From the IMG/VR virus record IMGVR_UViG_3300041583_000284, positions 308 through 64,307 of that record: 64,000 nt of DNA, one strand, 5' to 3'. Both the position numbers and the translations under genes were made by a program. The notes beneath the pieces were generated by a model that saw only the letters and a list, made by a program, of their open reading frames with translations, made no database searches and had not been told where the DNA came from. Below, in pieces: positions 45,875 through 60,913 of the stretch. This stretch comes from a virus. The number at the start of each line of letters is the position of its first letter. The first letter of the stretch is position 1.

Positions 45875-45876
45875 TG

Positions 45877-46705: not shown

Positions 46706-46719
46706 ATCGTATCCTTTCT

Positions 46720-46738
46720 CTTAGTCCCGAGGACTAAG
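46720..46738 (-). repeat. junction palindrome P1 (CTTAGTC-N5-GACTAAG)
   Basis: CTTAGTC CCGAG GACTAAG, between the stop at 46741 and the ATG at 46705. Confidence 0.85.
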
Positions 46739-46740
46739 TG

Positions 46741-47670
46741 TTACCAACCAAAGCCGGGCAGAGCTGCGATCGCTGCGTCCAGCTGCTTCTTTGTATCCGC
46801 CTTGTGGTAGGGGTCGTCCCGCAGAGCGAGGGCCGACGTGCCATTGAGGGTTTCGCTGAGGACACGCTGCATCCGCACCATGTCCGGGTCGTTGGTGATG
46901 TTGCACGTCTCCATCATGGCCACGAGGTCATGCGCCCGGTCAATCACGCTGTCGTAGATGCGCCGTGCCTTCTCCCCTTCCGCTGTCGGCTCCAGCTGCC
47001 GGGTCAGGGTGGTCAGGGTGTCGCGCAGCCGGGCCCAGATGTCGTCCATGGCGGACTTGATCTGCGTGTCGAAGTAGGAGGAATACTCCTTCTGCAAGGC
47101 TGCCTTGGCCTCGGCCTCCATATCCACACGCCAGTCGCCTGCATCAGGCAAGGGCACGAAGCTCATGCGGAACGCGAACTTGTCCCGGATGGAATCGACC
47201 GTGGGGTATTCCTCGCGGTTGAACAGGGTGCCCAACTTGAGCTCGGAGGCGGAAATCTCCCAGCTGTATGCCTTGAGGAACGCGTTGGCCAAGCGGTGGA
47301 ACTCGTCTTGCAGGGCCGTCATCTGCTTCTGGTACTTGAAGAACTGCGCCGTGGGGAGCAGGCGCAGGCCGAGGTCGGACCATGGCATGGTCATGGACCG
47401 GTGCAAGCTACGCACATTCTCCGAGAACTTCTGCACAGCATCGAGCTCTGCGCAGTCGCCCAGCAGGTTCTTGTTGACGCTGGCCACACCCCGTGCAGCA
47501 CCGCTGGAGCGGGTCACCGCCTCGGATGCCGTCTTGTCCCGCTTACGTGCCGTCCACACAGAGATGGACAGGTCCACCAGCATAGCCGCGCTGGACACCG
47601 ACGGGGCACTCTGCCCGAAACCCGCAGGCAGCTGGATCGGGTTAGGCTTGTTTGTGATATTGATTGTCAT
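46741..47670 (-). CDS. DUF3150-like protein
   Basis: 309 aa. LSISVWTARKRDK near the N-terminus is recalled from DUF3150, a family that accompanies CobS/CobT-like AAA and vWA genes in phages. Not verified. Confidence 0.5.
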   Translation of the reverse strand: MTINITNKPNPIQLPAGFGQSAPSVSSAAMLVDLSISVWTARKRDKTASEAVTRSSGAARGVASVNKNLLGDCAELDAVQKFSENVRSLHRSMTMPWSDLGLRLLPTAQFFKYQKQMTALQDEFHRLANAFLKAYSWEISASELKLGTLFNREEYPTVDSIRDKFAFRMSFVPLPDAGDWRVDMEAEAKAALQKEYSSYFDTQIKSAMDDIWARLRDTLTTLTRQLEPTAEGEKARRIYDSVIDRAHDLVAMMETCNITNDPDMVRMQRVLSETLNGTSALALRDDPYHKADTKKQLDAAIAALPGFGW

Positions 47671-47900
47671 GGTGTTTGGTCTCCTACAATGGATGTTAAT
47701 CTAAAAGCGACGATACGATCCGCCGCTATGGATACAGACTCCTTGTCGTTACGCAGGGTCAGGAACCCTGTGTCTCGTATCTTCTGGGTGAAGAACTCCC
47801 CGATCCCCGGGCCCACTGGCACGTGCAGCGCCACCATGCCTCCGCCGGTCACCTGCACTTCAACAAGGGACCACTCCGTGGGGTATTTTGGTTTTGTCAT
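47667..47900 (-). CDS. hypothetical protein
   Basis: 77 aa. AAGGAGAG RBS after palindrome P2. ATGA-coupled to the DUF3150-like gene. Confidence 0.5.
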   Translation of the reverse strand: MTKPKYPTEWSLVEVQVTGGGMVALHVPVGPGIGEFFTQKIRDTGFLTLRNDKESVSIAADRIVAFRLTSIVGDQTP

Positions 47901-47921
47901 TCTTTTTCTCTCCTTGGTTGG

Positions 47922-47942
47922 ACTTAGTCGGGATGACTAAGT
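47922..47942 (-). repeat. junction palindrome P2
   Basis: ACTTAGTC GGGAT GACTAAGT. Abuts the GR1 stop. 21 nt containing CCAACCAAGGAGAG precede the ATG at 47900. Confidence 0.9.
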
Positions 47943-48175
47943 TAGTTGTCGCCGTCGCCGGAGCCGTCGCCGGAGCCGTAGCCATCGCCGTAGCCGTTGC
48001 CGAAGCCGTAGCCGAAGCCGTTGCCGAAGCCATCGCCGTTGCCGTTGCCGAAGCCGTAGCCGAAGCCGTTGCCGAAGCCGTTGCCGAAGCCGTAGCCGTC
48101 GCCGTCGCCGTAGCCGTAGCCGTCGCCGTAGCGGGACCCCGCCCACACCAGCGGGCGCAGGAACGTCCAGATCAT
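47942..48175 (-). CDS. Gly-rich micro-protein GR1 (MIWTFLRPLVWAGSRYG leader plus Gly-X repeat core)
   Basis: 77 aa. Its ATG overlaps the GR2 stop (ATGA). Its TAA stop abuts palindrome P2. Confidence 0.7.
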   Translation of the reverse strand: MIWTFLRPLVWAGSRYGDGYGYGDGDGYGFGNGFGNGFGYGFGNGNGDGFGNGFGYGFGNGYGDGYGSGDGSGDGDN

Positions 48176-48348
48176 TGTTCACCTCTGTTCCCATTGCCGT
48201 AGCCGTAGCCGTCGCCGTCGCCGTCGCCGTCGCCATCGCCGTAGCCGTAGCCGTCGCCGTAGCCGTTGCCGTTGCCGTTGCCGTTGCCGTGGCCGTGGCC
48301 GTAGCGGGACTTCGACCACACCAGCGGCCGCAGGAAAGTCCAGATCAT
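48172..48348 (-). CDS. Gly-rich micro-protein GR2
   Basis: 58 aa, MIWTFLRPLVWSKSRYGHGHGNGNGNGNGYGDGYGYGDGDGDGDGDGYGYGNGNRGEQ. The ATG at 48348 overlaps the stop of the 278-aa ORF (ATGA). The 3-prime end encodes the GAGGTGA RBS for GR1. Confidence 0.7.
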   Translation of the reverse strand: MIWTFLRPLVWSKSRYGHGHGNGNGNGNGYGDGYGYGDGDGDGDGDGYGYGNGNRGEQ

Positions 48349-49181
48349 AGCGCTGCGTAGAGGCACTCTACCTGCATAGTGTGGGTTGAGCGCTCGAACC
48401 CGTGGTGTCTGATCTGGAAGATCCGCTCTGGTGCGAGGTCAGAGAGCTCGGTGTCCATGCCATTGGGCAATTCTGGGATCAGGTATGGCCGGTGGAGGGG
48501 CTGCTCGGGGCCGTGCCGATACCCTGAGCTGGAATACTTAGGCGCTAGCTTATGGGCGTCGTCGTTGCCCAGCGCACACCATGCGGTACAGGCCGCATGC
48601 AGATTGTGCAGAGCTTTCTTCTCCTCCGGGGTGCGCTTGACCGGCACACGGACCGGGATGTTGTCGCCGACGGCCTTGCTCTGCGGGCTGGGGATGTAGG
48701 CCATGGGCCGGTTGTAGTGGTTCACACCAACTGCCGACCACGCGGACGCCCACTGCCACGCGGCGTTGCGCCCCTTGTCGTTTCGGTAGTTGCTACCAAT
48801 ACCCACGCTGCGCCCGGTGCTCGCATCGAGGAGCAGGAGCTGCGAGTCTCCTCTGTTGATCCACGCCTTGGGCAGGGGCTTGGCTGCCAGAACGTCGGCG
48901 TCCTGCCTGCACAGTGCGAGCACCGCGCGTGCCTCGGGGGTCAGGCTGTCTTTGCCAAGCGACAGTGCGGGGCAGTCCCCTTCCACGCTGCTGACCACAC
49001 GCAGGTCACTCTCGCCCCGCCCGAGCCTGCGCTCCATGCCGCGATGATCGGGCTTGAAGTCCCGCGCCGAGAGCAGAACTTCGCCGCTCTCGAACACGAT
49101 CAGATTGTGCTCGGGCTCGTTGTAGAACCGCTTGAAGCGATCCCAGCGGGCGTCTTTGTTGTCGAATGTTGGGAGTTTCAT
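48345..49181 (-). CDS. hypothetical protein
   Basis: 278 aa. AAAGGAAAG RBS after palindrome P3. Confidence 0.55.
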   Translation of the reverse strand: MKLPTFDNKDARWDRFKRFYNEPEHNLIVFESGEVLLSARDFKPDHRGMERRLGRGESDLRVVSSVEGDCPALSLGKDSLTPEARAVLALCRQDADVLAAKPLPKAWINRGDSQLLLLDASTGRSVGIGSNYRNDKGRNAAWQWASAWSAVGVNHYNRPMAYIPSPQSKAVGDNIPVRVPVKRTPEEKKALHNLHAACTAWCALGNDDAHKLAPKYSSSGYRHGPEQPLHRPYLIPELPNGMDTELSDLAPERIFQIRHHGFERSTHTMQVECLYAAL

Positions 49182-49205
49182 GTTGTTTGCTTTCCTTTGG
49201 TTGGG

Positions 49206-49224
49206 CTTAGTCGGAATGACTAAG
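49206..49224 (-). repeat. junction palindrome P3
   Basis: CTTAGTC GGAAT GACTAAG, directly after the GR3 stop. Confidence 0.9.
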
Positions 49225-49365
49225 TCAGTTGCCGTAGCCGTAGCCGAAGCCGTAGCCGTCGCCGAAGCCGTAGCCGAAGCCGTAGCCGTAGCCGCCGCCG
49301 TCGCCGTAGCCGTAGCCGTAGCGGAACCGGGACCACACCAGTGGGCGTAGAAAGCCCCAGATCAC
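49225..49365 (-). CDS. Gly-rich micro-protein GR3
   Basis: 46 aa, (V/M)IWGFLRPLVWSRFRYGYGYGDGGGYGYGFGYGFGDGYGFGYGYGN. The GTG start overlaps the vWA gene stop (GTGA). The TGA stop abuts palindrome P3. Confidence 0.6.
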   Translation of the reverse strand: MIWGFLRPLVWSRFRYGYGYGDGGGYGYGFGYGFGDGYGFGYGYGN

Positions 49366-50621
49366 AGCTCGTGACCCTTGATGTGTGTCGTGGCCCCGTG
49401 GGCGGGGCGGGCGCTCTTGTTGTCGAGGATAGTCCACAGGACCGGGCAGGTCCACGTTCCCCAGCCGCCGCCGAGGTAGCCGTCAGTCAGCACGATGACC
49501 GCCTGTGGTGCGATACCATTCTTGTTGAGGAACTCCGGCACGCACTCGACCATGGTGCCGCCACCGCCCGCAGGCTTAGTCGAGGCGACTAAGTTGGGCA
49601 GGTCTTGCTCGAGATACACCTCGTGTCTGCACACTTCGGTATCCCAGTACAGCAGGTGGACGCGCTCGGGGCGCACGGAGTCTGCGATGCCGCGGACCTC
49701 GCTCAAAAACGATGCCAGTTGCGGTCCTCCGATAGACCCCGACGTGTCTATCGCCACGCAGATGTCCTTGACGCGCTCGGTGGTGCCACTGGGCATGTAG
49801 TAGCCGCCGATGAAGCGACGGTTGGGCCGCTTCCACGTGGAGAAGTCAGACCCTGCGCAGGTTGTCGTGATGAAGTCGCGCAGCGCTGTGCGCCAATCCA
49901 CCTGTGGCTGCATCAGGTCGTCGAGGGAGCGATCGCCACCGGACCCCGTCTTGCCTGCCATCAGCGCGCCTTGACGCACTGCCTCGTCAATGTCACGGGC
50001 CAGCGCTTGCTTGTCCGCATCGGGCATATCCTGCGCCCCGTCCCAGTCGTGCATATCGAAACCTTGACCGGACTGGCCCTCGCCTTGGCCCTCGCCTTGG
50101 CCCTCGCCTTGGCCCTCGCCTTGGCCCTCGCCTTGGCCCTCGCCTGACTTGGCGTTCTTGAGCAGATCGTGGAACACCGCAGCGCTGTCCCAGTCGCGGT
50201 ACTTCTCGTCGAAGCAACCGGTCCGCAGGGCACCGGTCATGGTGGCGAAGTGATCTGACTTGTTGTCATCTACCAGCTTGATGTTGATGACGAAGTCGCA
50301 AGCCTGATTGGCCATCTGAGCATGGCGCAGGTACATCCACCGCCACGTGGTCAGGTGCTTGTACAGCTTGTGATAGTTCTCGTGCAGGACGAGGAACCGC
50401 AGCTCGGAGTCCTTGAGCGATGCGATGAAGTCGGGGTTGTAGACCTCATTCATGCCGTCCGTGGCCGCAGTATTCACAGGGCTGCGACGTATGTGGGTAT
50501 CCACCGTGCGGCTGCCGATCATCAGCACGCCCGCCAAGGCGCGATACCTCTCGTGGTGCATGATCGCAATGACAGCCTTTTGCAGGCGCTGTTCTGGAGT
50601 GAGTTTGCCGTTCCCAAACAT
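49362..50621 (-). CDS. vWA-domain protein with an N-terminal putative metallopeptidase domain (CobT/DUF2201-like)
   Basis: 419 aa. HExxH in FLVLHENYHKLYKH. MIDAS motif in VAIDTSGSIGG. Internal perfect (GEGQ)6 repeat. Confidence 0.75.
   Translation of the reverse strand: MFGNGKLTPEQRLQKAVIAIMHHERYRALAGVLMIGSRTVDTHIRRSPVNTAATDGMNEVYNPDFIASLKDSELRFLVLHENYHKLYKHLTTWRWMYLRHAQMANQACDFVINIKLVDDNKSDHFATMTGALRTGCFDEKYRDWDSAAVFHDLLKNAKSGEGQGEGQGEGQGEGQGEGQGEGQSGQGFDMHDWDGAQDMPDADKQALARDIDEAVRQGALMAGKTGSGGDRSLDDLMQPQVDWRTALRDFITTTCAGSDFSTWKRPNRRFIGGYYMPSGTTERVKDICVAIDTSGSIGGPQLASFLSEVRGIADSVRPERVHLLYWDTEVCRHEVYLEQDLPNLVASTKPAGGGGTMVECVPEFLNKNGIAPQAVIVLTDGYLGGGWGTWTCPVLWTILDNKSARPAHGATTHIKGHEL
49575..49593 (-). 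repeat. palindrome P4 (intragenic copy)
   Basis: CTTAGTC GAGGC GACTAAG inside the vWA gene, encoding NLVASTKP. Confidence 0.8.
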
Positions 50622-50643
50622 GGGGTATTCCTTCCTTGATTGG

Positions 50644-50664
50644 ACTTAGTCGGGATGACTAAGT
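50644..50664 (-). repeat. junction palindrome P5
   Basis: ACTTAGTC GGGAT GACTAAGT, after the GR4 stop. Confidence 0.9.
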
Positions 50665-50888
50665 CAGTTGCTGTTGCCGTAGCCGAGGCCGAGGCCGTAG
50701 CCGTCGCCGCTACCCCATCCGTTGCCGCTGCCCCATCCGTTGCCGTAGCCGCGGCCGTAGCCGGGGCCGTGGCCGTGGCCGTAGCCGTCGCCGTAGCCGG
50801 GGCCGTGGCCGTCGCCGTAGCCGTAGCCGTCGCCGTCGCCGTAGCGGGACTTCGACCACACCAGCGGGCGCAGGAACGTCCAGATCAT
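50664..50888 (-). CDS. Gly-rich micro-protein GR4
   Basis: 74 aa with the MIWTFLRPLVWSKSRYG leader. ATGA overlap with GR5. The TGA stop abuts palindrome P5. Confidence 0.7.
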   Translation of the reverse strand: MIWTFLRPLVWSKSRYGDGDGYGYGDGHGPGYGDGYGHGHGPGYGRGYGNGWGSGNGWGSGDGYGLGLGYGNSN

Positions 50889-51061
50889 TGTTCACCTCCG
50901 TTCCCATTGCCGTAGCCGCAGCCGTCGCCGTCGCCGTCGCCGTCGCCATCGCCGTAGCCGTAGCCGTCGCCGTAGCCGTTGCCGTTGCCGTTGCCGTTGC
51001 CGTGGCCGTGGCCGTAGCGGGACTTCGACCATACCAGCGGGCGGGCAAAGAGCCAGATCAT
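50885..51061 (-). CDS. Gly-rich micro-protein GR5
   Basis: 58-aa ORF read by hand, below the track length cutoff: MIWLFARPLVWSKSRYGHGHGNGNGNGNGYGDGYGYGDGDGDGDGDGCGYGNGNGGEQ. The ATG overlaps the stop of the upstream 252-aa ORF (ATGA). Near-duplicate of GR2. Confidence 0.65.
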   Translation of the reverse strand: MIWLFARPLVWSKSRYGHGHGNGNGNGNGYGDGYGYGDGDGDGDGDGCGYGNGNGGEQ

Positions 51062-51816
51062 TCGCTACTCTTTACCCACGCAGTGAACGACCCGTAGTCG
51101 GGGGCGCTCGCGTGCTCCTCGGTGTAGTAGGCGTCGTGCTCCTCATACACAATTTTGCGGAGTTCTTTCTCTACTGCTGGCACCTCTGCCCCGTAGTCTG
51201 CGATCCCAGCGGAGACGCGCAGATTCTCCCACTGGTCCCGGTCCAGCAAGGCCACGAGGGTATCAGGCCAGCCCGGCTGCCCCCTGTGCATCTGCTCGTT
51301 ACCAAGCAAGGCTGCCATGGGCTTGTACCATGCGAGGAAGTCCTTGAGACCGGACACTTCCATGGCCTTGTTTGCCTTCTTGCGGTCTACCCGCACACGG
51401 GCGATAGGGCGCGTGTCCTCGCTGGCGTGGGTCAGCCTGCCCTCTGCGTCAAGGCGCACCTGGGCCCCGGGCTTATAGTAAGCATCGCCGGAACGAAGGG
51501 CCTTGCACTCCCCGCTTATGCCGGCGCCCCGAGGCATGAAGCGATCGGCGAAGGCCGCGGTGCTCTGGCTCTCGTAGTTGAGGTCCAGCGTGCATGTGTT
51601 GTCGGGGTGCCACTGCACCACCTCAGTGCTGTGATAGATGAAGCAGATCGTGCCGTCGTGGCTCTTTGACAGCCCGGTGAAGTGGGCGCTGTGGCGGGGC
51701 ATGGCATGTGTGCCCGAGCGACCGTAGGTGTTCTTGCGCAGCTTGGCCTTGTCGAACAGGGCTGCTGCCTCTGCGTAGGTGTTGAGGCGTCTGACGCCGG
51801 GCATTTGAAGTCTCAT
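51058..51816 (-). CDS. hypothetical protein
   Basis: The ATG at 51816 (MRLQMPGVRR...) follows palindrome P6 and an AAGGAAGGA RBS. The track ORF start at 51882 would read through the palindrome and GR6. Confidence 0.55.
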   Translation of the reverse strand: MRLQMPGVRRLNTYAEAAALFDKAKLRKNTYGRSGTHAMPRHSAHFTGLSKSHDGTICFIYHSTEVVQWHPDNTCTLDLNYESQSTAAFADRFMPRGAGISGECKALRSGDAYYKPGAQVRLDAEGRLTHASEDTRPIARVRVDRKKANKAMEVSGLKDFLAWYKPMAALLGNEQMHRGQPGWPDTLVALLDRDQWENLRVSAGIADYGAEVPAVEKELRKIVYEEHDAYYTEEHASAPDYGSFTAWVKSSE

Positions 51817-51839
51817 GGTTTTAGTCCTTCCTTGGTTGC

Positions 51840-51860
51840 ACTTAGTCGGGATGACTAAGT
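51840..51860 (-). repeat. junction palindrome P6
   Basis: ACTTAGTC GGGAT GACTAAGT, after the GR6 stop. Confidence 0.9.
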
Positions 51861-51952
51861 CAGTTGTGGTTGTAGCGGCCATAGCCGAGGCCGAGGCCGT
51901 AGCCGTAGCGGGATTTCGACCACACCAGCGGGCGGGCGAAGAGCCAGATCAT
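51860..51952 (-). CDS. Gly-rich micro-protein GR6 (shortest member)
   Basis: 30 aa, MIWLFARPLVWSKSRYGYGLGLGYGRYNHN. The ATG overlaps the HNH gene stop (ATGA). The TGA stop abuts palindrome P6. Confidence 0.55.
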   Translation of the reverse strand: MIWLFARPLVWSKSRYGYGLGLGYGRYNHN

Positions 51953-52584
51953 GTCACTGATCCTTTCTTTGGCACGAGTAGTGCTAGGCCCCGCACACCC
52001 TTGCGCCACCGGCTGTCCACTGTTGAGTACGGCAAGCCGTATTCTCGGACAGCATCTGTCAGGGCCAATCGGCGGTCGGGCAGGTAGACCCACCGGGTCT
52101 GGCGACGGTTGTTCAGTTGCTCAGTCATGGTGACCCAGCGCACGTTACCGGGCTCGTAGCCCCGCTCGTTATCAATCCGGTCCAGTGTACTGTGCCGATC
52201 TTGGGTAGGTGCGGGACCGATGTGGGCGTAGAACAAGGCAAAGTCCGCCTCCCACGCGGGGAGCATGGCTATGCCGCGCCCCCCATAGTTGTGGTATTTA
52301 GGGTTCTTTGGGTTGTTGCATCGCTGCTTTGCAGCAATCCACGCAACCCATTCTTTGCCGTGGGCCAGACCATGCCTAGCCCTACGGCGATTGCTTTCGG
52401 CGACGCCGCACTTTACCGAACAGGAGATAGCCCCTGTCCGCAAGTGGCTGCCGGTCTTTATGCAGATGTTCCCACAGTCGCATTGGCATTCCCACCGAGC
52501 TTGCCCGTCGTGGCTACTGTCCACTTGTCTAGTTACAAGTAACTTTCCTTGGCGTATTCCAGCCCACTGAACTAGGTTGCCCAC
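51949..52584 (-). CDS. HNH homing endonuclease (paralog of 39971-40717)
   Basis: 211 aa, GTG start. CQCDCGN...CSVKCG zinc region, YHNYGGRGI, STLDRIDNERGYEPGNVRWVTMTEQ. Same architecture as the polymerase-associated HNH. Confidence 0.75.
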   Translation of the reverse strand: MGNLVQWAGIRQGKLLVTRQVDSSHDGQARWECQCDCGNICIKTGSHLRTGAISCSVKCGVAESNRRRARHGLAHGKEWVAWIAAKQRCNNPKNPKYHNYGGRGIAMLPAWEADFALFYAHIGPAPTQDRHSTLDRIDNERGYEPGNVRWVTMTEQLNNRRQTRWVYLPDRRLALTDAVREYGLPYSTVDSRWRKGVRGLALLVPKKGSVT

Positions 52585-52600
52585 TTAGGTTTCTCCCCTG

Positions 52601-53701: not shown

Positions 53702-53722
53702 TGTGTGTATTCCTTTGGTTGA

Positions 53723-53743
53723 ACTTAGTCGGGATGACTAAGT
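53723..53743 (-). repeat. junction palindrome P7
   Basis: ACTTAGTC GGGAT GACTAAGT, after the GR7 stop. Confidence 0.9.
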
Positions 53744-54451: not shown

Positions 54452-54474
54452 GGTAGTCTCCATAGGTTGTTGTA

Positions 54475-54495
54475 ACTTAGTCGGAATGACTAAGT
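54475..54495 (-). repeat. junction palindrome P8
   Basis: ACTTAGTC GGAAT GACTAAGT, after the GR9 stop. Confidence 0.9.
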
Positions 54496-54740: not shown

Positions 54741-55039
54741 TTCAGTCTGGCGTGCATCACCTGCCACTCCTCCGGCCACAGCAGGGTCGGCACATCCTTC
54801 AGTGCGAAGACTTGCGGCTCTCCGTCCTCCACACGGATGCTGTATGTGGCACGGAGCCAAGGCTTGTGGTTGTGATAGGAGCCGCTGCCTGTCTCCGTGA
54901 TCTGCATGGTGATCTTACCCTTGATCGACTTAGGCGGCATGCCTAAGAGGGTGGCGATCATGAACAGCTTCTTAAACTCTATGAAGGTTGCGATCTGCTC
55001 GTGCAGGTTGGCGATTGCTTTGTCGATGATGTCGATCAT
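54737..55039 (-). CDS. hypothetical protein
   Basis: 100 aa, ATGA-coupled upstream and downstream. Confidence 0.5.
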   Translation of the reverse strand: MIDIIDKAIANLHEQIATFIEFKKLFMIATLLGMPPKSIKGKITMQITETGSGSYHNHKPWLRATYSIRVEDGEPQVFALKDVPTLLWPEEWQVMHARLK

Positions 55040-55525: not shown

Positions 55526-55543
55526 CGTCTTCTCCTTTGTTGT

Positions 55544-56050
55544 TTAACTTAGTCGTTGTGACCGAGTGGTTTTCCATGGGGCTTTGCCCGCGATCACGCG
55601 GCGGACTGCAGCGGCCGCTTGTGCCGGGCTGCACGGGTCTGGGGCCAGCACGGCGTCGAACAGCGGATGCCCCTTGTGCACCGCCATTTCGCTCTCGTGC
55701 AGATTGCGGCTGAGGCCGAGGAACCCCAAGGCGGCGTCTCTTGTGGCTGCCCAGTCGCCTTCCGTGTCCTTCAGCAAGGCCTGCTGCCGCTTGAGGGATG
55801 GGAAAATCTCCCCCGGCTCTGCGACAGACATGAGGTGTGCGGCCCCTGCGATGCAGCAAACGGTGCCACAGTCAGGCTTCAGCATCTCGTCCGTGCGCCG
55901 CAACAGGCTGCCCAAGGTGCTGCAATCGCCGGTGGCGTCGGCCACTCCGTCGTCCGTGGCGGCGCAGATACCCAGCTCCATGTTGAAATAGGCATGTGGT
56001 GCGCCGGCCTCGAGCCACTCGGCGAGCTGTGTCAGGTGTGGGATATGCAT
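55544..56050 (-). CDS. hypothetical protein
   Basis: 168 aa. AAAGGAAC RBS after P10. Its 3-prime end runs through degenerate palindrome P9. Confidence 0.55.
   Translation of the reverse strand: MHIPHLTQLAEWLEAGAPHAYFNMELGICAATDDGVADATGDCSTLGSLLRRTDEMLKPDCGTVCCIAGAAHLMSVAEPGEIFPSLKRQQALLKDTEGDWAATRDAALGFLGLSRNLHESEMAVHKGHPLFDAVLAPDPCSPAQAAAAVRRVIAGKAPWKTTRSQRLS
55547..55567 (-). repeat. junction palindrome P9 (degenerate arm)
   Basis: ACTTAGTC GTTGT GACCGAGT. Overlaps the 3-prime end of ORF 55544-56050. Confidence 0.7.
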
Positions 56051-56072
56051 CGTCTTGTTCCTTTCTTGGTTG

Positions 56073-56093
56073 ACTTAGTCGTTGTGACTAAGT
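56073..56093 (-). repeat. junction palindrome P10
   Basis: ACTTAGTC GTTGT GACTAAGT. Contains the stop of ORF 56088-56321. Confidence 0.9.
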
Positions 56094-56321
56094 GGTGTAA
56101 GTATGGGCCTCGGGCCGCCCAGCTTCTTGGTCAGCAGCCCACTTGTCATGCAGGTCGTTGTGCTGGACGAGTGCAGTGGCCTCGTCAGGGGCTTCCTGCC
56201 AGACATAGGCGTCGGCGTCGTCCACAATTGCCCGGCCAGCAGGCGTGGCGAAGGTTGCCTCAGTCATGCAGGCTGGCTCGAAGGCGTTGTCGCTGTGTTC
56301 GTAGGTGCAGTATCTTGGCAT
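56088..56321 (-). CDS. hypothetical acidic protein
   Basis: 77 aa. Its stop codon is the TAG inside palindrome P10. Confidence 0.5.
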   Translation of the reverse strand: MPRYCTYEHSDNAFEPACMTEATFATPAGRAIVDDADAYVWQEAPDEATALVQHNDLHDKWAADQEAGRPEAHTYTT

Positions 56322-56344
56322 TGTCTTGTTCCTTTCTCGGTTGA

Positions 56345-56363
56345 CTTAGTCGTTGGGACTAAG
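56345..56363 (-). repeat. junction palindrome P11
   Basis: CTTAGTC GTTGG GACTAAG. Contains the stop of ORF 56359-56649. Confidence 0.9.
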
Positions 56364-56649
56364 AGTGAAAGCCAAAGTGGCCATTGCTCTCGTCGGCTCT
56401 GGCGGAGTCTGGGTGCCACACGGCACAGATCTGGTAAGCGATCGGCCCCAGCGGGTCTGCACGATAGGTAGCTGTGATTTCGAGGCTGTCGGCGGACGCA
56501 TGACCAATCAACTCAGCATAAGCATACTGAGCGGAGCTGCTGGCCCACTGGGACAGATAGCCAATGGCTTGGTGCATGTCGTCGCGTCCAGTAACAGACT
56601 CAATCTTTGTGAGGGTGTCCGGCTCGATGTTCAGATGCGTGGTTCTCAT
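56359..56649 (-). CDS. hypothetical protein
   Basis: 96 aa. Its stop codon is the TAG inside palindrome P11. Confidence 0.5.
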   Translation of the reverse strand: MRTTHLNIEPDTLTKIESVTGRDDMHQAIGYLSQWASSSAQYAYAELIGHASADSLEITATYRADPLGPIAYQICAVWHPDSARADESNGHFGFHS

Positions 56650-56673
56650 TTGGTTGGTTCCTTCTGTTGTTGA

Positions 56674-56692
56674 CTTAGTTGTTGTGACTAAG
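56674..56692 (-). repeat. junction palindrome P12
   Basis: CTTAGTT GTTGT GACTAAG (one inner mismatch). Contains the stop of ORF 56688-57113. Confidence 0.85.
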
Positions 56693-57113
56693 CAGGGCGT
56701 GCGTCGCCCTGCGGGATCGGTGCAGCGAGGGCCTGCATGATGGCAAGGTAGTGCTCATCCACGATGGTGTGGCACAGTTGCTCCTTCTGCTCCTTCGACA
56801 GGCCCTTGAGGTGCTTCAGGTGCTTGGCCTTTTGCTTATCGAACACAGCTCGGGCGTCGGCGAGATCCTCTTCTGTATGACGCCACGGCAACGGGGTGCA
56901 CCACTGGGTGTGCAACGGGGTGTGCCACACCATCGTGTGGTGCAGTTGTTCCCTCGACATGCGCTTGAGGCGCTTGAGATGCTTGGCCTTTTGCTCCTCG
57001 AACACAGCTCGGGCGTCGGCGAGATCCTCTTCTGTATGACGCTGGGGGAAGATCAGCGTGCAGCGCGCGTTTTCGTACCGTGCGGCGGCGGCGGCCTTGC
57101 GGACTTTGGGCAT
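56688..57113 (-). CDS. hypothetical protein with an internal tandem duplication
   Basis: The ATG at 57113 (MPKVRKAAAA...) follows P13 and an AAAGGAAC RBS. RHTEEDLADARAVF(E/D)(E/K)QKAKHLK(R/H)LK occurs twice. The stop is the TAG inside P12. Confidence 0.5.
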   Translation of the reverse strand: MPKVRKAAAAARYENARCTLIFPQRHTEEDLADARAVFEEQKAKHLKRLKRMSREQLHHTMVWHTPLHTQWCTPLPWRHTEEDLADARAVFDKQKAKHLKHLKGLSKEQKEQLCHTIVDEHYLAIMQALAAPIPQGDARPA

Positions 57114-57134
57114 CGTCTTGTTCCTTTCGGTTGA

Positions 57135-57153
57135 CTTAGTTGTTGTGACTAAG
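57135..57153 (-). repeat. junction palindrome P13
   Basis: CTTAGTT GTTGT GACTAAG. Contains the stop of ORF 57149-57409. Confidence 0.85.
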
Positions 57154-57409
57154 CGCTTGTTGCAAACATAACTGTCACGTCGTGGCAATCGCACGGCAGG
57201 ACACCGTATTCGGCGGCGTCATGGTAACGTGCGAAGTGAGACTGCTCGGCGGCATCGGCGTAGGTCAGCGGGCCAAACTCCATCACCATGTCTGTTTCCC
57301 AGCGGGTGAAGGCGCGTGCCTCATTGTCGTCGAGGCCTGTCGTGTCGCCGTTGATGCACGCAGGCAGCCAGTGGGTCGGCAGTGCGAGGGTGAGTCGGTC
57401 GAATGTCAT
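57149..57409 (-). CDS. hypothetical protein
   Basis: The ATG at 57409 (MTFDRLTLALPTHW...) follows an AGAAGGAAC RBS. The stop is the TAG inside P13. Confidence 0.5.
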   Translation of the reverse strand: MTFDRLTLALPTHWLPACINGDTTGLDDNEARAFTRWETDMVMEFGPLTYADAAEQSHFARYHDAAEYGVLPCDCHDVTVMFATSA

Positions 57410-57428
57410 GGTGTGGTTCCTTCTGTTG

Positions 57429-57632
57429 TTAGATTTGAAAATCAGCGACGACGCCGTTTTTTTGGCACTGGGGGCAGATGCAGCTTGCATACTCATCCCA
57501 GTCGCTGTCCCAGTTGGGCAGTTTCTTGTCGTCTGTATCGAAGCCATCGGCGTCGTACCTGCCCCACACACTAGCAGTGATGTGGAAGGCCTTGTTCTGG
57601 CCACAGTTGGGGCACTTCATGTCTTCCAGCAT
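57429..57632 (-). CDS. small zinc-ribbon protein (first early ORF)
   Basis: The ATG at 57632 follows P14 and an AAAGGAAC RBS. MLEDMKCPNCG...CICPQCQ (two CxxC pairs). Confidence 0.5.
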   Translation of the reverse strand: MLEDMKCPNCGQNKAFHITASVWGRYDADGFDTDDKKLPNWDSDWDEYASCICPQCQKNGVVADFQI

Positions 57633-57653
57633 AGTGCGGTTCCTTTCGGTTGA

Positions 57654-57672
57654 CTTAGTTGTTGTGACTAAG
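57654..57672 (-). repeat. palindrome P14 (upstream of the first early ORF)
   Basis: CTTAGTT GTTGT GACTAAG. Sits in a 31-bp block identical to the P12 region. Confidence 0.85.
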
Positions 57673-57970
57673 CAGGGCGGTGTCGCCCCGCTGCGTTGTT
57701 TCCTTGAACGTCTGCCTTGTGTGTTCCTTGGCCTGTTGTCAGCAGGCATGACTTGACGGCTCTGTCGGTGTCGTGGGGTTTTAGTGGCTATCGCTTGGCC
57801 GTGCGTCATGCACGGGGGTCTGGAGGCTTCTTAGGCAGGTTCGGCGTCGCTTCACAGCGGGGCTTACTTCTCCGATAGCATACACCCTCTTGTCCGAGAG
57901 ACGTATGGCAGATCATCTAGCATCATCGAGGCATTGTTTCCGGCTATGCCATCTCTGGCGTAGCCAGATA

Positions 57971-57991
57971 ACTTAGTCGGGGGGACTAAGT
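57971..57991. repeat. palindrome P15 (non-coding leader region)
   Basis: ACTTAGTC GGGGG GACTAAGT. Confidence 0.85.
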
Positions 57992-58074
57992 GCCTCTAGC
58001 GTTTGGTTATGGTCCACGTGCCATGCAGGGCAGGCGGCTGATAAAGAGCTGGCAAGCGCCTCACGACGCGGCCA

Positions 58075-58093
58075 CTTAGTCGCAAGGACTAAG
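58075..58093. repeat. palindrome P16 (non-coding leader region)
   Basis: CTTAGTC GCAAG GACTAAG. Followed by a second inverted repeat, GAAGCGGC...GCCGCTTC (58096-58126). Confidence 0.85.
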
Positions 58094-58135
58094 CACGAAG
58101 CGGCACCAACTGCATCTGGGCCGCTTCGTACTATT

Positions 58136-58163
58136 AGAATATCATGGTGGCACCTCATATCAA
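58136..58163 (-). promoter_or_regulatory. leftward early promoter candidate
   Basis: Read on the minus strand: TTGATA (58163-58158), 16-nt spacer, TATTCT (58141-58136). Lies upstream of P16, P15, P14 and the first early ORF. Pattern match only. Confidence 0.3.
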
Positions 58164-58340
58164 GCAGTTTGTTCTAGAAGTGGGCATGTTTGTTTAGGAA
58201 GGTTTCGTGGTTTCTGATGGTGGGAGATGGCACACTTTTGTTAATGCTATGCTGTGTCTGTCGGTTTAGTGGTGGGAGGTGGCGGGGTGTGAGAACTGGC
58301 ATTGGTGGGCAGTGTTGGGGAGTGTGAGGTTTGTGGGGGG

Positions 58341-58359
58341 CTTAGTCGTCGGGACTAAG
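58341..58359. repeat. palindrome P17 (control region)
   Basis: CTTAGTC GTCGG GACTAAG. Confidence 0.85.
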
Positions 58360-58559
58360 TGGCAATGGATGGTATGAAAACAGAACTGCTACCCTGTGTC
58401 TGTCGGTTTAGACGTATATGGTGGTATGGGAACAGAACTGCTACCCTGTGTCCCAAAGTTTGGTGGTGTATGGTGGTTTATGCATGTATCTGCTGAGGGT
58501 TTTTCGGCGGTTTCGGATGGGGTCGGTATATGGTAGCATATGGTTGTAAGGGGTGGTAT

Positions 58560-58995
58560 ATGGGTAATGTTCTTATTGTCTTAGTAATGTTCTTAAAAAT
58601 ATATATATATAACAATGTCTTGCGGGAATGTAACAATGTTCCTGCTTGAAGGGTACTCAGCTACATTTTTTTGTGTTGTGCACGGAACATTGGTAAAACG
58701 GACCGCTTTTGCCAGAATCGCGTTTTCTAAATCCTACCCTACCCTTCAAAACGCGGAACATTACAACATTACTGCAATATCAATGACTTAGGGGGAACAT
58801 TGGGTCGGAACATTACAAACTGGCAAAATCGCTAAGTCATTGATATATAACGAATTGCAATGTTCCTGCAAAAGGCCAACTTCACTATAACTCACAGTCC
58901 CAGAGAGTTTAGTTATATAATATCTATTGACAAAAATACGCAGACTGTGACAAGTAGTGAAGTTGGCCGATTTTGGCCAAATCTGGAACATTACA
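58560..58995. other. iteron-like repeat region with an AT-rich core (replication origin or master regulatory region candidate)
   Basis: GGAACATT or its complement AATGTTC(C/T) occurs at 58566, 58586, 58635, 58684, 58755, 58794, 58807, 58859 and 58985. AT run AAAAATATATATATATAA at 58594-58613. 15-bp perfect inverted repeat ATATCAATGACTTAG / CTAAGTCATTGATAT (58777-58791 / 58832-58846). Lowest GC in the window. Confidence 0.4.
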
Positions 58996-59009
58996 AAAAG
59001 GGGCTAAAA

Positions 59010-59318
59010 ATGGCTACTGAGCGAGACCTCGACCGCGCGCAGGCAATCCACAATTACGGTAGAAACTGCTACTTTTGTGCAGCTGGCCCTCTGGAGCGAC
59101 GCGCTTTATTCCTGAAACCCCTCGGGCCCAACAACACCAACGTGCCTATGTGCAAAACGTGTTGCCATGCCGTCGATACAGGCGTGTCGCTGCGTCCCAT
59201 CCTGCTCGCGCACTTGAAGCGTGGTCGTGCACTTGAAGCTGTCGCCAGTCTGCGCCTGACCGAATACGGCTGGGCCACACCGCGCAGACCCGAGCACCTA
59301 CTTAGTCACGAGGACTAA
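59010..59318 (+). CDS. zinc-ribbon protein, paralog A
   Basis: ATG at 59010 inside track ORF 58860-59318. MATERDLDRAQAIHNYGRNCYFCAAGPL...CKTCCHAV. The N-terminus and CxxC spacing are shared with paralog B. Confidence 0.55.
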   Translation: MATERDLDRAQAIHNYGRNCYFCAAGPLERRALFLKPLGPNNTNVPMCKTCCHAVDTGVSLRPILLAHLKRGRALEAVASLRLTEYGWATPRRPEHLLSHED

Positions 59319-59379
59319 GTCCCGCCCCGGCCAAAGCCGCGGGGTTCCGAAGTCCCGTCGCTGTTGGAGAACTGGCTTC
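59297..59379 (+). repeat. 83-bp repeat element, copy 1 (palindrome plus GC-rich tail)
   Basis: CTTAGTCACGAGGACTAAGTCCCGCCCCGGCCAAAGCCGCGGGGTTCCGAAGTCCCGTCGCTGTTGGAGAACTGGCTTC. Confidence 0.85.
59300..59320 (+). repeat. palindrome P18 (plus-strand unit)
   Basis: ACTTAGTC ACGAG GACTAAGT. Contains the TAA stop of ORF 59010-59318. Confidence 0.9.
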
Positions 59380-59398
59380 CGTTTTGAAAGGACACAAC

Positions 59399-59707
59399 AT
59401 GGCTACTCAGAGAGATATTGACCGCGGGCTTGCGCAGCGCAGGTATGGCAAAAGCTGCTACTGTTGCGGGAAAGGCCCGCTGTCGGGGCACGGACTGTTC
59501 TTGGCGCCTATTGGCTACACCGAGTACGCAAACACTGCCCACCCGCTTGCCCCCGTGTGCGCCTCGTGCCGCACAGCGCTCAAAACTGTCCCGACCCTCC
59601 GCCACATTGAGAACCTGCGTAGGGACCTGCGTAAGTGTCTGGTGACCACGCGGCGCTGGGCGGACGAGATCCACGGACTGGACTTTGCTTACCTCAGTGA
59701 GAACTGA
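59399..59707 (+). CDS. zinc-ribbon protein, paralog B
   Basis: ATG at 59399 after a GAAAGGA RBS. MATQRDIDRGLAQRRYGKSCYCCGKGPL...CASCRTAL. Confidence 0.55.
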   Translation: MATQRDIDRGLAQRRYGKSCYCCGKGPLSGHGLFLAPIGYTEYANTAHPLAPVCASCRTALKTVPTLRHIENLRRDLRKCLVTTRRWADEIHGLDFAYLSEN

Positions 59708-59790
59708 CCCGCTTAGTCACGAGGACTAAGTCCCGCCCCGGCCAAAGCCGCGGGGTTCCGAAGTCCCGTCGCTGCTGGAGAACTGGTTTC
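59708..59790 (+). repeat. 83-bp repeat element, copy 2
   Basis: Near-identical to copy 1. Tandem with copy 3 at an 86-bp period. Confidence 0.85.
59712..59730 (+). repeat. palindrome P19
   Basis: CTTAGTC ACGAG GACTAAG, 5 nt after the stop of ORF 59399-59707. Confidence 0.9.
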
Positions 59791-59793
59791 TGG

Positions 59794-59876
59794 CCCGCTT
59801 AGTCACGAGGACTAAGTCCCGCCCCGGCCAAAGCCGCGGGGTTCCGAAGTCCCGTCGCTGTTGGAGAACTGGTTTC
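59794..59876 (+). repeat. 83-bp repeat element, copy 3
   Basis: Near-identical. Followed by an AAAGGAAAG RBS-like sequence but no ORF. Confidence 0.85.
59798..59816 (+). repeat. palindrome P20
   Basis: CTTAGTC ACGAG GACTAAG, in the third copy of the 83-bp element. Confidence 0.9.
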
Positions 59877-59890
59877 CGAAAGGAAAGCAC

Positions 59891-59921
59891 AAAAAAGCCC
59901 CCGAACCTTGCGGCGCGGGGG
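59891..59921 (-). terminator. rho-independent terminator candidate (distal of a tandem pair)
   Basis: Minus-strand reading: CCCCCG-(12 nt containing CCGCAAGGT)-CGGGGG then CTTTTTT. Confidence 0.55.
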
Positions 59922-59935
59922 TAAACGGCGGGCAC

Positions 59936-59967
59936 AAAAAAAACCCCGTAACCTTGCGGCTACGGGG
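59936..59967 (-). terminator. rho-independent terminator of gene 59978-60805
   Basis: Minus-strand reading: CCCCGTA-GCCGCAAGGT-TACGGGG followed by T8. Confidence 0.8.
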
Positions 59968-59977
59968 TTGATCTAGA

Positions 59978-60805
59978 TTACTTGATATCGGCGGGGTTCT
60001 GTTTCGCCGTCTGGCCCTTCACAGGCGCGGGACTCTTGCTAGCCTTTACTTTTGTTGCAAGGGGCTTGGGCTTCCGGTCAATCTTGGCGCTTGCCTTGTC
60101 AGCGGCCAGAACCGCGTCATAGGCGGCAAGGCACAACCGCGCCAAGTTTTGTTTTTCCTTCACAGGTGACAAGGCAAGCAAGGCAAGCTCGCAAAGACGC
60201 AAGTAAGCGGGCGCATCGACGTGGGGCGGTATCTGTTCGCCCTTGCCATTAGTCGCGGCAAGTGCCGTTGCCATTGCTTTCATTGGCGCACCCATTGCGT
60301 CGATAGCGCGTTGATCAATTGGCGCTTTGCGATTTGGGGCTTTCGTTCCATCCGCCGCGATAGGCGCGGCATTGTCCGCTTTGGTTTGCGCGATTGCTTT
60401 GGCAATCCGGTCCGTGATGCGACCGAACACCTTTCCCTTTTGCATCTGCCAATAGAGCCGCGTATTGCTTGCCATGCCTTTCTTGGGCGCGCCGATCATA
60501 TCCTTTGCGCCCTTGCCATTGTTCACCTTATCGGTGAACACCTTACCCCAAGCCTCCACGACCGCCGCGTCCTTCAAGATGATATAGGCGTTCCTTTCCT
60601 CTACACTTGCATCCTTGTCGCGTGATGTAGCAGTAAGGCAACGGGCAGACCCGAACGTGGCCACGGCGGCATCGTGTACGGCCATTGCCGCTGCCATTGC
60701 AATCACGCTGGCCGTTGCTTCCCTATCCAAGGCACGAATGGCCAAGGGGATAGTGGACAAGATAAGGTCTAGATTCGGGCGGGGGCTATTTGTTTCGATT
60801 TTCAT
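59978..60805 (-). CDS. hypothetical protein (stand-alone leftward gene in the control region)
   Basis: 275 aa, Ala/Lys-rich. Has its own promoter candidate and twin terminators. No domain recognised. Confidence 0.6.
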   Translation of the reverse strand: MKIETNSPRPNLDLILSTIPLAIRALDREATASVIAMAAAMAVHDAAVATFGSARCLTATSRDKDASVEERNAYIILKDAAVVEAWGKVFTDKVNNGKGAKDMIGAPKKGMASNTRLYWQMQKGKVFGRITDRIAKAIAQTKADNAAPIAADGTKAPNRKAPIDQRAIDAMGAPMKAMATALAATNGKGEQIPPHVDAPAYLRLCELALLALSPVKEKQNLARLCLAAYDAVLAADKASAKIDRKPKPLATKVKASKSPAPVKGQTAKQNPADIK

Positions 60806-60861
60806 TGTGTAGTCTACTTTCTGTTAAGGTTATATGGCAGGCTTTCCCTGTCCACATCTTA

Positions 60862-60890
60862 CTTATAGGACAGAGTAGAACCAATAACAA
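60862..60890 (-). promoter_or_regulatory. sigma70-like promoter candidate for gene 59978-60805
   Basis: Minus-strand reading: TTGTTA (60890-60885), 17-nt spacer, TATAAG (60867-60862). Confidence 0.35.
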
Positions 60891-60894
60891 TAGA

Positions 60895-60913
60895 CTTAGA
60901 CCCAAGGACTAAG
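60895..60913. repeat. palindrome P21 (one mismatch)
   Basis: CTTAGAC CCAAG GACTAAG, 5 bp from the -35 of the promoter candidate at 60862-60890. Confidence 0.6.

Follow-up and report, generated by a model that had tools for sequence, protein, structure and literature searches.

A lineage-specific palindrome at the gene junctions of a family of podophages with an N4-like gene order and its possible readings

The 64,000-nt stretch of viral DNA considered here (positions 308–64,307 of the IMG/VR record IMGVR_UViG_3300041583_000284; hereafter, the window) carries a short palindrome, CTTAGTC-N5-GACTAAG, repeated mostly at the junctions of its early and middle genes. Judging from sequence comparisons, this palindrome is a cis-acting signal at gene junctions and a trait of the whole phage family, and its stem is read specifically by something that co-evolves with the stem. 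The best explanation, to which a probability of about 40% is given, is that of an mRNA junction hairpin read by a phage factor and separating or controlling cistrons; here, we infer RNA as the active form, a phage protein as the reader, and the effect of the element.

According to this explanation, the element would be transcribed as a part of the early and middle polycistronic mRNAs and would fold as a 7–8-bp hairpin located right after the stop of one cistron and about 8 nt ahead of the Shine–Dalgarno sequence of the next. A fast-evolving phage-encoded factor would read the stem, chiefly its three loop-proximal pairs, and separate or gate the cistrons, either by cleavage or stabilisation of the mRNA or by blocking or permitting ribosome loading on the next start. 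The outcome would be joint control of the early and middle genes, with the late genes unaffected.

Occurrence of the palindrome in the window and in related phages

The copies were counted by an exhaustive scan of both strands of the window for CTTAGTC-N5-GACTAAG, with the expectation taken from shuffles. There are 16 exact copies (0.00 expected), 23 copies with at most two mismatches (0.03 expected) and 24 with at most three (1.1 expected), the single extra three-mismatch match at 52120 being probably due to chance; none of 20 shuffled windows contained any palindrome with a 7-bp stem even twice. The copies range from 41598 to 60913 and are restricted to the early and middle arm, where the majority lie on leftward transcripts and about 20 of the 23 occupy gene junctions or the leader. 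None falls into the plus-strand structural arm (1–31.6 kb), which comprises the portal gene (508–2955), the genes of the capsid, tail and ejection proteins and a giant open reading frame (ORF) reaching up to 31582.

The loop sequence varies with the region. On the plus strand, it reads GGGAT or GGAAT at 47.9–54.5 kb, GTTGT or GTTGG at 55.5–57.7 kb and ACGAG in the three copies at 59.3–59.8 kb, and the leader copies have mixed loops. Since loops are not conserved among close relatives, these region-specific classes reflect copy history, not function. No copy is followed by a U-tract (a T-run in the DNA); the hairpin gives way to TCAACC or TCCAACC instead.

An earlier note on this DNA, drawn from the sequence alone, had listed 21 copies between 46720 and 60913, nearly all at gene junctions, and had proposed a full scan to see whether the motif was equally frequent inside structural genes or occurred at a chance level. 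Neither turned out to be the case. The placement at junctions, the region-dependent loops and the absence of U-tracts were all recovered, as were the three copies of the non-coding leader (58341, 58075 and 57972) and the degenerate copy near a −35 hexamer (60895, ending 5 nt from TTGTTA-N17-TATAAG). The span was right for 22 of the 23 copies, copy 41598 having been overlooked, and the single intragenic copy of the note has to be replaced by at least two, probably three (49575, 41598 and probably 54929).

In the minus-strand sense, i.e., that of the leftward genes, the junctions share one order: a stop codon within or touching the 5′ arm, the hairpin, a spacer of about 8 nt, the Shine–Dalgarno sequence and the ATG, the latter lying 21–25 nt past the hairpin at 13 junctions and 14 nt past it at one further junction. 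This composite unit had escaped the earlier note. The stop of the upstream ORF is the TAG within the 5′ arm (nCT TAG TC) at four early junctions, and a TGA or TAA contacts the hairpin at six middle ones. On the 3′ side, the T(C)CAACC sequence leads to a Shine–Dalgarno sequence of the AAGGA or GGAG type and then to the ATG. This geometry also holds for the family: over 156 canonical copies, the medians are 3 nt from stop to hairpin, 8 nt from hairpin to Shine–Dalgarno and 21 nt from hairpin to ATG (interquartile range 17–26.5). The RNA hairpin predicted in its context has a stem of 7–9 bp and an energy of −6.8 kcal/mol and leaves the Shine–Dalgarno sequence unpaired. Exactly 21 nt past each of the three within-ORF copies (41598, 49575 and 54929) lies an in-frame ATG, at the spacing of gene starts; intragenic copies in other lineages lack such an ATG at 21 nt. 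The three ATGs of the window may be internal starts or a coincidence.

More than 100 related loci (given L-numbers here) were collected from IMG/VR by searches with the motif and with the DUF2201 protein. The same palindrome occurs in three or four close relatives (those named here are L016, L030, L035, L001 and L006). About 40 more distant loci (DUF2201 protein 50–63% identity) have a palindrome of their own each, in 4–14 perfect copies, and the number of related loci with at least four perfect copies of their own palindrome amounts to 43. Thus, the element, regarded in the earlier note as genome-specific, is shared as a motif by close relatives and as a phenomenon by the family. The lineage palindromes, written as one arm and the loop length, include TGTTAGG-N6, GTTAGTG-N3/4, GTTAGGG-N3/4, GTTAGGC-N3, GTTAGTC-N3/4 and TTTAGGG-N4 as well as GTTATAC-N3, GTTATCA-N3/4, GTTCTAC-N3, GTGTAAC-N3, TGTAGTG-N3 and GTATGCG-N3; most relatives combine a 7–8-bp stem with an N3 or N4 loop, and the window phage has N5. 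The AAA_5 gene is preceded by a palindrome in 49 of 60 loci and the DUF3150 gene in 40 of 55, the arms being lineage-specific.

In the cultured Planktothrix phage Pag-Yong1, whose genome has conserved synteny, GGTTCA-GNC-TGAACC is repeated about 25 times, arranged as TGA, hairpin, Shine–Dalgarno and ATG. No comparable repeats were found in HTVC027P and DSL-LC04, related via terminase only, or in the N4-like phage nACB1, and the literature searched yielded no description of either this element or the Pag-Yong1 repeats.

Hairpin in mRNA or palindrome in duplex DNA

The evolution of the stem was followed in an alignment of 28 sequences from the AAA_5 and DUF3150 junctions, with seven core pairs and, hence, 196 core-pair cells. 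All seven core pairs are 100% Watson–Crick: 60 cells display two-sided changes and none a one-sided change. The covariation score is 0.648 vs. 0.132 in shuffles, none of which (0/500) reached the former value, and controls with a slid alignment were paired in just 25–44% of the cells. The outer GTTA/TAAC is near-constant, and the lineage differences reside in the three loop-proximal pairs. Among close relatives, the stems diverged by 1.7%, the loops by 14.1% and the flanks by 7–9%; across the family, 259 of 302 copies are perfect. The 3′ flank appears more conserved than the 5′ flank (A in 24/28 vs. T in 11/28), a comparison confounded by the upstream coding sequence and the A-rich leader.

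The presence of one stem per genome, along with different stems at the same junctions across genomes, can be accounted for only by sequence-specific recognition and not by a generic terminator. Both of these points had been made in the earlier note, and both are upheld, the former also by the constraint on the stem, which far exceeds that on the loop. RNA structures of a generic kind operating without a specific reader, such as weak terminators, 3′-end protectors resembling repetitive extragenic palindromic (REP) elements or insulating hairpins, would explain moderately stable hairpins directly after stop codons and their presence after the last genes of the rightward unit. However, such structures should drift site by site and contain G–U pairs, whereas the family copies are mostly perfect, adhere to one stem per genome and have G–U as rarely as A·C. 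Besides, only three of the seven stem pairs are G–C, there is no U-tract, a terminator scan revealed no enrichment and the real intrinsic terminators of this genome (59,975–59,890) look different. The stems (7–9 bp) are likewise too short for RNase III of the T7 type, associated with a duplex of about 20 bp or more; the likeness to T7 processing hairpins proposed earlier therefore fails. The generic explanation is, on the whole, scarcely credible. Rfam 15 gave no match at any copy (E up to 1, 40–64 kb). Mobile repeats of the REP/RAYT type or miniature inverted-repeat transposable elements do not fit the element either: it is 19 nt in size, and no transposase family was detected in the screens. 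A sigma-70 promoter within or around the hairpin was rejected, as the hexamers and spacings are unfit and promoter-like sites are not enriched.

Several observations support a folded strand. First, 9 of 43 genomes combine an identical stem with two loop lengths, N3 and N4 or else N4 and N5, in copies that occupy normal junctions, and the half-site CTTAGTC flanks N5 in the window and N3 in L077 and L087. Second, changes tend to come in pairs: 4 of the 14 two-mismatch copies hold a compensated pair vs. a few percent expected, and copy 49575 is represented in L035 by the doubly changed, still paired CTTGGTC..GACCAAG, although both changes are synonymous third-position ones, which makes this case weak evidence. 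Third, the element resides in transcribed gaps near Shine–Dalgarno sequences, and the within-ORF copies precede an in-frame ATG by 21 nt.

Other observations weigh against the mRNA hairpin, and a part of them is better accommodated by an array of duplex-DNA operators. In the latter case, a phage regulator bound at about 20 sites would shut down or time early and middle transcription during lytic growth. It would be a roadblock inside operons and, in the control region, would work through an operator of the classic kind, by the logic of the stoperators, the phiC31 CIRs and the plasmid KorA/KorB operators. A conserved stem with a free loop or spacer is the usual pattern of a duplex operator, unlike that of most RNA hairpin–protein pairs. 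In the sense orientation, the 302 copies include 7 G·T and 10 A·C, so there is no excess of G–U, which counts against the hairpin because a purely structurally selected RNA helix would show such pairs; changes in either arm are equally rare, with no one-sided change among the 196 core-pair cells. In many N3/N4 lineages, the palindrome extends to the centre (A-N-T, G-N-C, C-RY-G), the loop ends being complementary in 96/158 N3 and 48/74 N4 loops; a hairpin does not need that. Copy 60895 adjoins a promoter-like −35 in a possibly untranscribed region, and copy 58075 is situated just downstream of TTGATA-N16-TATTCT.

Further points bear on one of these two explanations only. The mRNA hairpin is at odds with the seven copies that have no gene start downstream (three in the leader, three after the zinc-ribbon genes and 60895), and the family and fold screens did not reveal an RNA-binding protein or nuclease fit to read it. 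The operator array gains from the retention of intragenic copies among relatives and from two zinc-ribbon paralogs whose genes are interspersed with the control-region copies and whose fold is suggestive of an inactivated HNH type; in the phages L5, P1 and phiC31, moreover, specific sites scattered in many copies turned out to be repressor sites. On the other hand, the spacer varies (3/4 or 4/5 nt) with the same half-sites in those 9 of 43 genomes, and from 3 to 5 nt between lineages with a common half-site, which counts against operators because a rigid dimer should not tolerate it, and double changes preserving complementarity are enriched. The comparison of relatives for compensatory changes, suggested earlier as a way of telling RNA from a protein operator, gave a divided answer accordingly: the paired double changes speak for RNA, whereas the strict conservation of the stem and the lack of G–U excess do not.

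The operator array also lacks an obvious regulator. No integrase or repressor families emerged from the Pfam and PHROG screens, and no repressor-like helix-turn-helix protein was found, nor does any candidate with a recognised DNA-binding domain adjoin the sites; a search of the genomes of 185,579 species, which reaches close relatives only, matched one 3.4-kb contig of a metagenome-assembled genome and no prophage copy. Together, these results make a lysogeny repressor unlikely, and the lack of matching prophage copies suggests a virulent lifestyle. Overall, the operator array is somewhat less probable than the mRNA hairpin, to which it is a close rival. Several other tests did not discriminate or were negative: the G–U vs. 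A·C asymmetry (7 vs. 10), considered as a criterion for RNA vs. template-strand DNA, was uninformative; the loop strand asymmetry (C vs. G at the loop centre) had no consistent direction across lineages; and an activator site for the host polymerase was excluded, with the palindrome centre just 31–34 nt upstream of the ATG.

The genome context brings in one more explanation. The window represents a nearly whole circular phage genome: related contigs bridge 64000 to 1 by about 180 nt, and a contig of 64,307 bp encodes a protein identical to one of the window. At the DNA level, the window has no close match among cultured phages. Its gene order agrees with that of the N4-like Acinetobacter phage nACB1 (Schitoviridae), the common order being early genes, MoxR, DUF2201, helicase, HNH-split PolA and giant virion protein. 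Among the products of the leftward genes (31.8–58 kb) are a DUF927 primase-helicase, SNF2 helicase, HNH-split PolA, exonucleases, Dam methylase, a DUF3150 protein, a DUF2201 peptidase/VWA protein, an AAA_5 (MoxR-like) ATPase and about 12 small early ORFs. Judged by their gene content, the phages hosting the element are podophages with an N4-like gene order devoid of both N4-type RNA polymerases.

The place of the N4 virion RNA polymerase (vRNAP) is taken by the giant ORF (25190–31582, plus strand; 2130 aa), which matches weakly the N-terminal part only of the vRNAP PHROG (E 1.7e-5). It encodes a polyvalent protein with an Ala/Pro-rich, low-complexity region at residues 300–1000, followed by an HExxH zincin motif and an LPD39 domain, and with a DarB-like C-terminus; no polymerase motifs were recognised in it by comparison with PDB sequences, Pfam and PHROGs or by motif search. 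Nor was there an RNA polymerase, a T7-like motif or a sigma factor among the 39 early and middle proteins screened. The lineage seems to have lost the polymerase domain or never to have possessed it.

Against this background, the palindromes might be promoters of the N4/LUZ7 type, i.e., template-strand DNA hairpins recruiting a single-subunit phage RNA polymerase, or some replacement, for transcription starts a few nucleotides downstream, each early and middle gene then having a promoter of its own. The early promoters of N4 are hairpins whose stems include both conserved and variable bases (PMC4496689), and in LUZ7, nine early and at least four middle hairpin promoters are known, with 3–4-nt loops and starts 13–15 nt from the centre (PMC9163698). 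The present phages resemble these systems in the genome architecture, with the giant ORF in the vRNAP position; in the short hairpins upstream of early and middle genes, which in most relatives have 7–8-bp stems and 3–4-nt loops; and in stem bases that are conserved in part and variable in part. The lineage-specific pairs are loop-proximal, where the N4 vRNAP makes its base contacts, and a start 13–15 nt from the centre would result in a leader of 15–19 nt including the Shine–Dalgarno sequence. Still, neither vRNAP nor the N4-type RNAPII was found, and the giant protein has neither room nor motifs for a polymerase; the N4-like phage nACB1 itself lacks a multi-copy palindrome, and copies also occur inside genes and past the last gene of a unit. 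Furthermore, N4 has 3 hairpin promoters and LUZ7 the 13 mentioned, not one at every junction (PMC4496689, PMC9163698). Hairpin promoters are, therefore, considered very improbable.

An alternative of a different kind is that the palindromes are cassette boundaries, recombination sites or small selfish elements involved in swaps of early genes between co-infecting relatives, regulation being secondary. The homology with the 95%-identical locus L016 (1041–2696) breaks exactly at hairpins 57654 and 55548 (window 57650–55562), and the six early genes between them (2.1 kb) are replaced in L016 by unrelated, hairpin-separated genes. In other lineages, the majority of the early genes are without homologues, while the junction elements persist. 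As far as such comparisons go, the early genes behave as exchangeable cassettes. In addition, the middle copies belong to a repeated unit composed of a Gly/Tyr-rich ORF, the hairpin and the Shine–Dalgarno sequence. Nevertheless, 19 bases are very short for homologous exchange, and the screens detected no transposase (Y1 or other), RAYT or integron-type integrase. Gene conversion would homogenise the loops, but these differ between copies and diverge fastest. Finally, the positions upstream of core genes are kept while the sequence shifts in step, which fits a functional site and a co-evolving reader better than it fits repeated invasion. As a primary function, cassette exchange is quite improbable; it is more likely a consequence of the element.

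Returning to the mRNA hairpin and its putative reader, no candidate was identified; most early proteins are without a detectable homologue beyond close relatives and evolve too fast for a co-variation search with the loci collected. The zinc-ribbon paralogs (59010–59318 and 59399–59707, plus strand) are 102-aa proteins with four invariant Cys, each gene being followed by a 79-nt repeat; they have 7 homologues in 5.8 billion proteins. The best fold matches of their model (predicted local distance difference test, pLDDT, 76.8) are HNH nucleases and T4 endonuclease VII, all with non-significant E > 0.1, and the catalytic His and Asn of HNH are not conserved; the modelled HNH-like resemblance is suggestive only. 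The other protein of the control region is a 275-aa Ala/Lys-rich ORFan (60805–59978), which forms a unit of its own with a sigma-70-like promoter site beside palindrome 60895 and with two tandem intrinsic terminators after the gene (59,975–59,890, minus sense). All of its 17 homologues are uncharacterised, and its all-helical model (pLDDT 67.5) had no fold match.

Individual copies and neighbouring features

The leftmost copy (41598..41616, minus strand), the variant CTTAGGC-TTGAT-GCCTAAG, is placed inside the gene of the PolA exonuclease domain (40581–41870), the in-frame ATG being 21 nt downstream; it has the same compensated T>G/A>C pair as copy 54929. The family A DNA polymerase concerned (39037–41870, minus strand) is split into this exonuclease part and a polymerase part (39037–39990) by an HNH endonuclease gene (39971–40717) with a paralog at 51949–52584; in nACB1, the split is similar.

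The exact copies of the middle region are all on the minus strand. Copy 46720..46738 has the TAA of the DUF3150 gene 2 nt upstream and the ATG 46705 at 14 nt downstream. That gene (46741–47670, minus strand) is below the Pfam cutoff for DUF3150 (E 8.5e-5); its Pag-Yong1 homologue, UMO76051, is annotated as a hypothetical protein, and the AcrVA2 annotation belongs to a different Pag-Yong1 coding sequence, UMO76045, of the same gene cluster. The AcrVA2/FinQ family lowered the mRNA of specific targets (bioRxiv 10.1101/2022.11.29.518452). Two copies abut the TAA of Gly/Tyr-rich small ORFs, each with the ATG at 22 nt: 47923..47941 (ATG 47900) and 53724..53742 (ATG 53701, AAA_5 (MoxR-like) gene). 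Four more abut a TGA of such ORFs: 49206..49224 (ATG 49181, 24 nt, 278-aa gene), 50645..50663 (ATG 50621, 23 nt, DUF2201 gene), 51841..51859 (ATG 51816, 24 nt, 252-aa gene) and 54476..54494 (ATG 54451, 24 nt). Copy 49575..49593 is an exact one inside the DUF2201 gene (49362–50621), with an in-frame ATG 21 nt downstream, and is kept in L016 and L030.

The Gly/Tyr-rich ORFs form a set of at least seven paralogs on the minus strand (47937–54767), e.g., 54495–54740, 53931–54173, 51860–51952, 50885–51061, 50664–50888, 49225–49365 and 48172–48348. Their common N-terminus, MIWxFxRPLVWSKxRYG, is followed by 15–65 residues of Gly-Tyr/Asp/Asn/His repeats. Between conserved middle genes, they stand alone or as pairs; each start overlaps the stop of the previous gene, and the last ORF of each group abuts the junction hairpin; a GYGLGY* tail precedes the hairpin in L056, too.

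The early copies, also on the minus strand, begin with 54929..54947, the variant CTTAGGC-GGCAT-GCCTAAG with the compensated pair, which is kept in L016, precedes the ATG 54907 by 21 nt and is probably located inside the ORF 54737–55039. At the degenerate copy 55548..55566 (CTCGGTC-ACAAC-GACTAAG in the minus sense; ATG 55525, 22 nt), the upstream ORF runs through the palindrome and stops at a TAA just past it. In the next four, the stop of the upstream ORF is the TAG of the arm: the exact copies 56074..56092 (ATG 56050) and 56345..56363 (ATG 56321), each with the ATG at 23 nt, and the one-mismatch copies 56674..56692 (ATG 56649, 24 nt) and 57135..57153 (ATG 57113, 21 nt). The closing pair of copy 56674 is C·A in the minus sense and G·T on the plus strand; the stem is perfect at this place in L016. 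Another one-mismatch copy, 57654..57672, stands before the first early gene (ATG 57632, 21 nt) and is preceded by a GC-rich hairpin.

This first early gene encodes a 67-aa zinc-finger ORF (57429–57632). It differs in this respect from many relatives, where the first early gene codes for a conserved 71–80-aa zinc-ribbon protein (C..C...R..LGY..CL.CGE...NKSNYMLFTD..LKQLNPKR) and is located about 700–900 nt downstream of the control-region motifs described below; these relatives include L053, L075, L078, L101, L051, L056, L065, L066 and L091.

The non-coding leader harbours three exact copies on the minus strand, i.e., 57972..57990, 58075..58093 (about 45 nt downstream of the sigma-70-like TTGATA-N16-TATTCT at 58163–58136) and 58341..58359, with CAGTTCT repeats on its flanks. 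The exact copies on the plus strand are three as well. Copy 59301..59319 holds, in its 3′ arm, the stop TAA of the zinc-ribbon gene 59010–59318 and heads the 79-nt repeat, in which the palindrome is followed by the GC hairpin CCCCGGCCAAAGCCGCGGGG and then by GGAGAACTGG; 59712..59730, 4 nt past the stop of the zinc-ribbon gene 59399–59707, belongs to the second copy of the repeat and 59798..59816 to the third. The last palindrome, 60895..60913, to which no strand is assigned, has one mismatch (T·T in the stem) and belongs to the divergent control region, where it precedes by 5 nt TTGTTA-N17-TATAAG, a site that reads leftward into the gene 60805–59978; the same position is also imperfect in L001 and L006.

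Two other motifs were noticed in the control region. The first, tGAtACCAGTTCyTAGAG.GCG..GCGc, is family-wide; the control region of a genome contains two or three copies, oriented like the early genes. In the window, its sites are at about 59,880–59,360 and 58,450–58,295 (minus sense), and it was also encountered in L037, L038, L039, L047, L053, L056, L060, L065, L066, L091, L101, L106, L108 and L112. It sits directly after an intrinsic terminator or 4–8 nt past a junction hairpin and is invariant between lineages; it could comprise binding repeats of the terminase small subunit or of an initiator, function as a promoter of an unusual kind or mark where a small RNA begins. The second is a word present as AATGTTCC / GGAACATT in about 10 copies in the AT-rich non-coding stretch 58,560–59,000 and in the control regions of L038, L053, L047, L078 and L079; these copies look like origin iterons or regulator sites.

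Known systems compared and implications

The nearest described elements are the ESAS of the Cluster K phages (PMC3203893). Like the present palindrome, they are inverted repeats with a variable spacer located immediately upstream of the ribosome-binding region; they precede a subset of genes in the non-structural half only, their consensus differs by subcluster and the sites are retained with the gene family that they precede (PMC3203893). A role in translation initiation was suspected for them (PMC3203893). The ESAS are composed of imperfect 17-bp arms with 4–13-bp spacers and are accompanied by a separate 13-bp asymmetric SAS (GGGATAGGAGCCC-like) (PMC3203893). Unlike them, the present element has perfect 7–8-bp stems, 3–6-nt loops and no SAS, and its leader is A/C-rich, with a plain, loosely conserved Shine–Dalgarno region. 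Since the hosts and the phage families are unrelated, the likeness is one of analogy, not of homology. The motif, described earlier as apparently new, is so in its sequence; as regards the type of element, it has this counterpart in Cluster K.

The CIRs of the temperate phage phiC31 are reportedly duplex operators with a fixed length of 17 bp, to which the isoforms of its repressor bind. They share with the present element a highly conserved palindrome and many intergenic copies in the early region, one of them at the promoter of a control-region gene. Unlike the CIRs, the spacing of the palindrome varies across relatives (it is fixed in the window genome), the screens gave no repressor and the phage is apparently virulent. 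The Cluster A stoperators, the sites of L5 gp71, are asymmetric sequences of 13–14 bp in one orientation, to which a monomeric immunity repressor binds in lysogens. Similar are the number of copies (about 20–30), the location in short intergenic gaps near stop and start codons, the group-specific sequence and the co-evolution of the reader; dissimilar are the perfect 7 + 7-bp inverted repeat and the lack of any sign of lysogeny. Hence, the parallel with stoperators drawn in the earlier note breaks down on symmetry and probably on lifestyle, neither an integrase nor prophage copies having been found. Overall, the present element differs from the ESAS, the CIRs and the stoperators in a defining feature each.

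In functional terms only, the element can also be compared with the Csy4/Cas6 hairpin sites, which are used in synthetic operons to insulate cistrons. These are likewise short hairpins with a sequence-specific stem placed between cistrons; if the junction hairpins were cleaved, the upstream message would end in a 3′ hairpin and the following one would begin with a short open leader. Unlike the case of Csy4/Cas6, there is no CRISPR context, and no Cas6-like or other RNase candidate was found. A Csy4-like phage reader, either a nuclease or a tight RNA binder, that cuts or clamps the mRNAs at every junction is, thus, a bolder and rather unlikely version of the hairpin explanation. If it were true, the specificity of the reader would have diversified together with the three loop-proximal pairs in dozens of lineages; the system would constitute a natural, evolvable operon-punctuation code in which the ancestral N4-type polymerases were replaced by post-transcriptional control.

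The palindrome is a simple marker for the annotation of gene starts and for the classification of these phages, and the cultured member Pag-Yong1, with its about 25 copies, makes the element testable. More than 15 distinct stem variants at the same junctions amount to a natural experiment in specificity: with GTTA/TAAC conserved on the outside and three variable pairs on the inside, the stems resemble a recognition code that can be read, and orthogonal hairpin–reader pairs would serve as insulators in synthetic operons. Solving the element could also illuminate the ESAS of Cluster K, whose function was left open in the 2011 paper (PMC3203893). For the phages themselves, it would mean a new control layer in a large group, much of it known from aquatic metagenomes, which is a descendant or a sister of the N4-like viruses without their polymerases.

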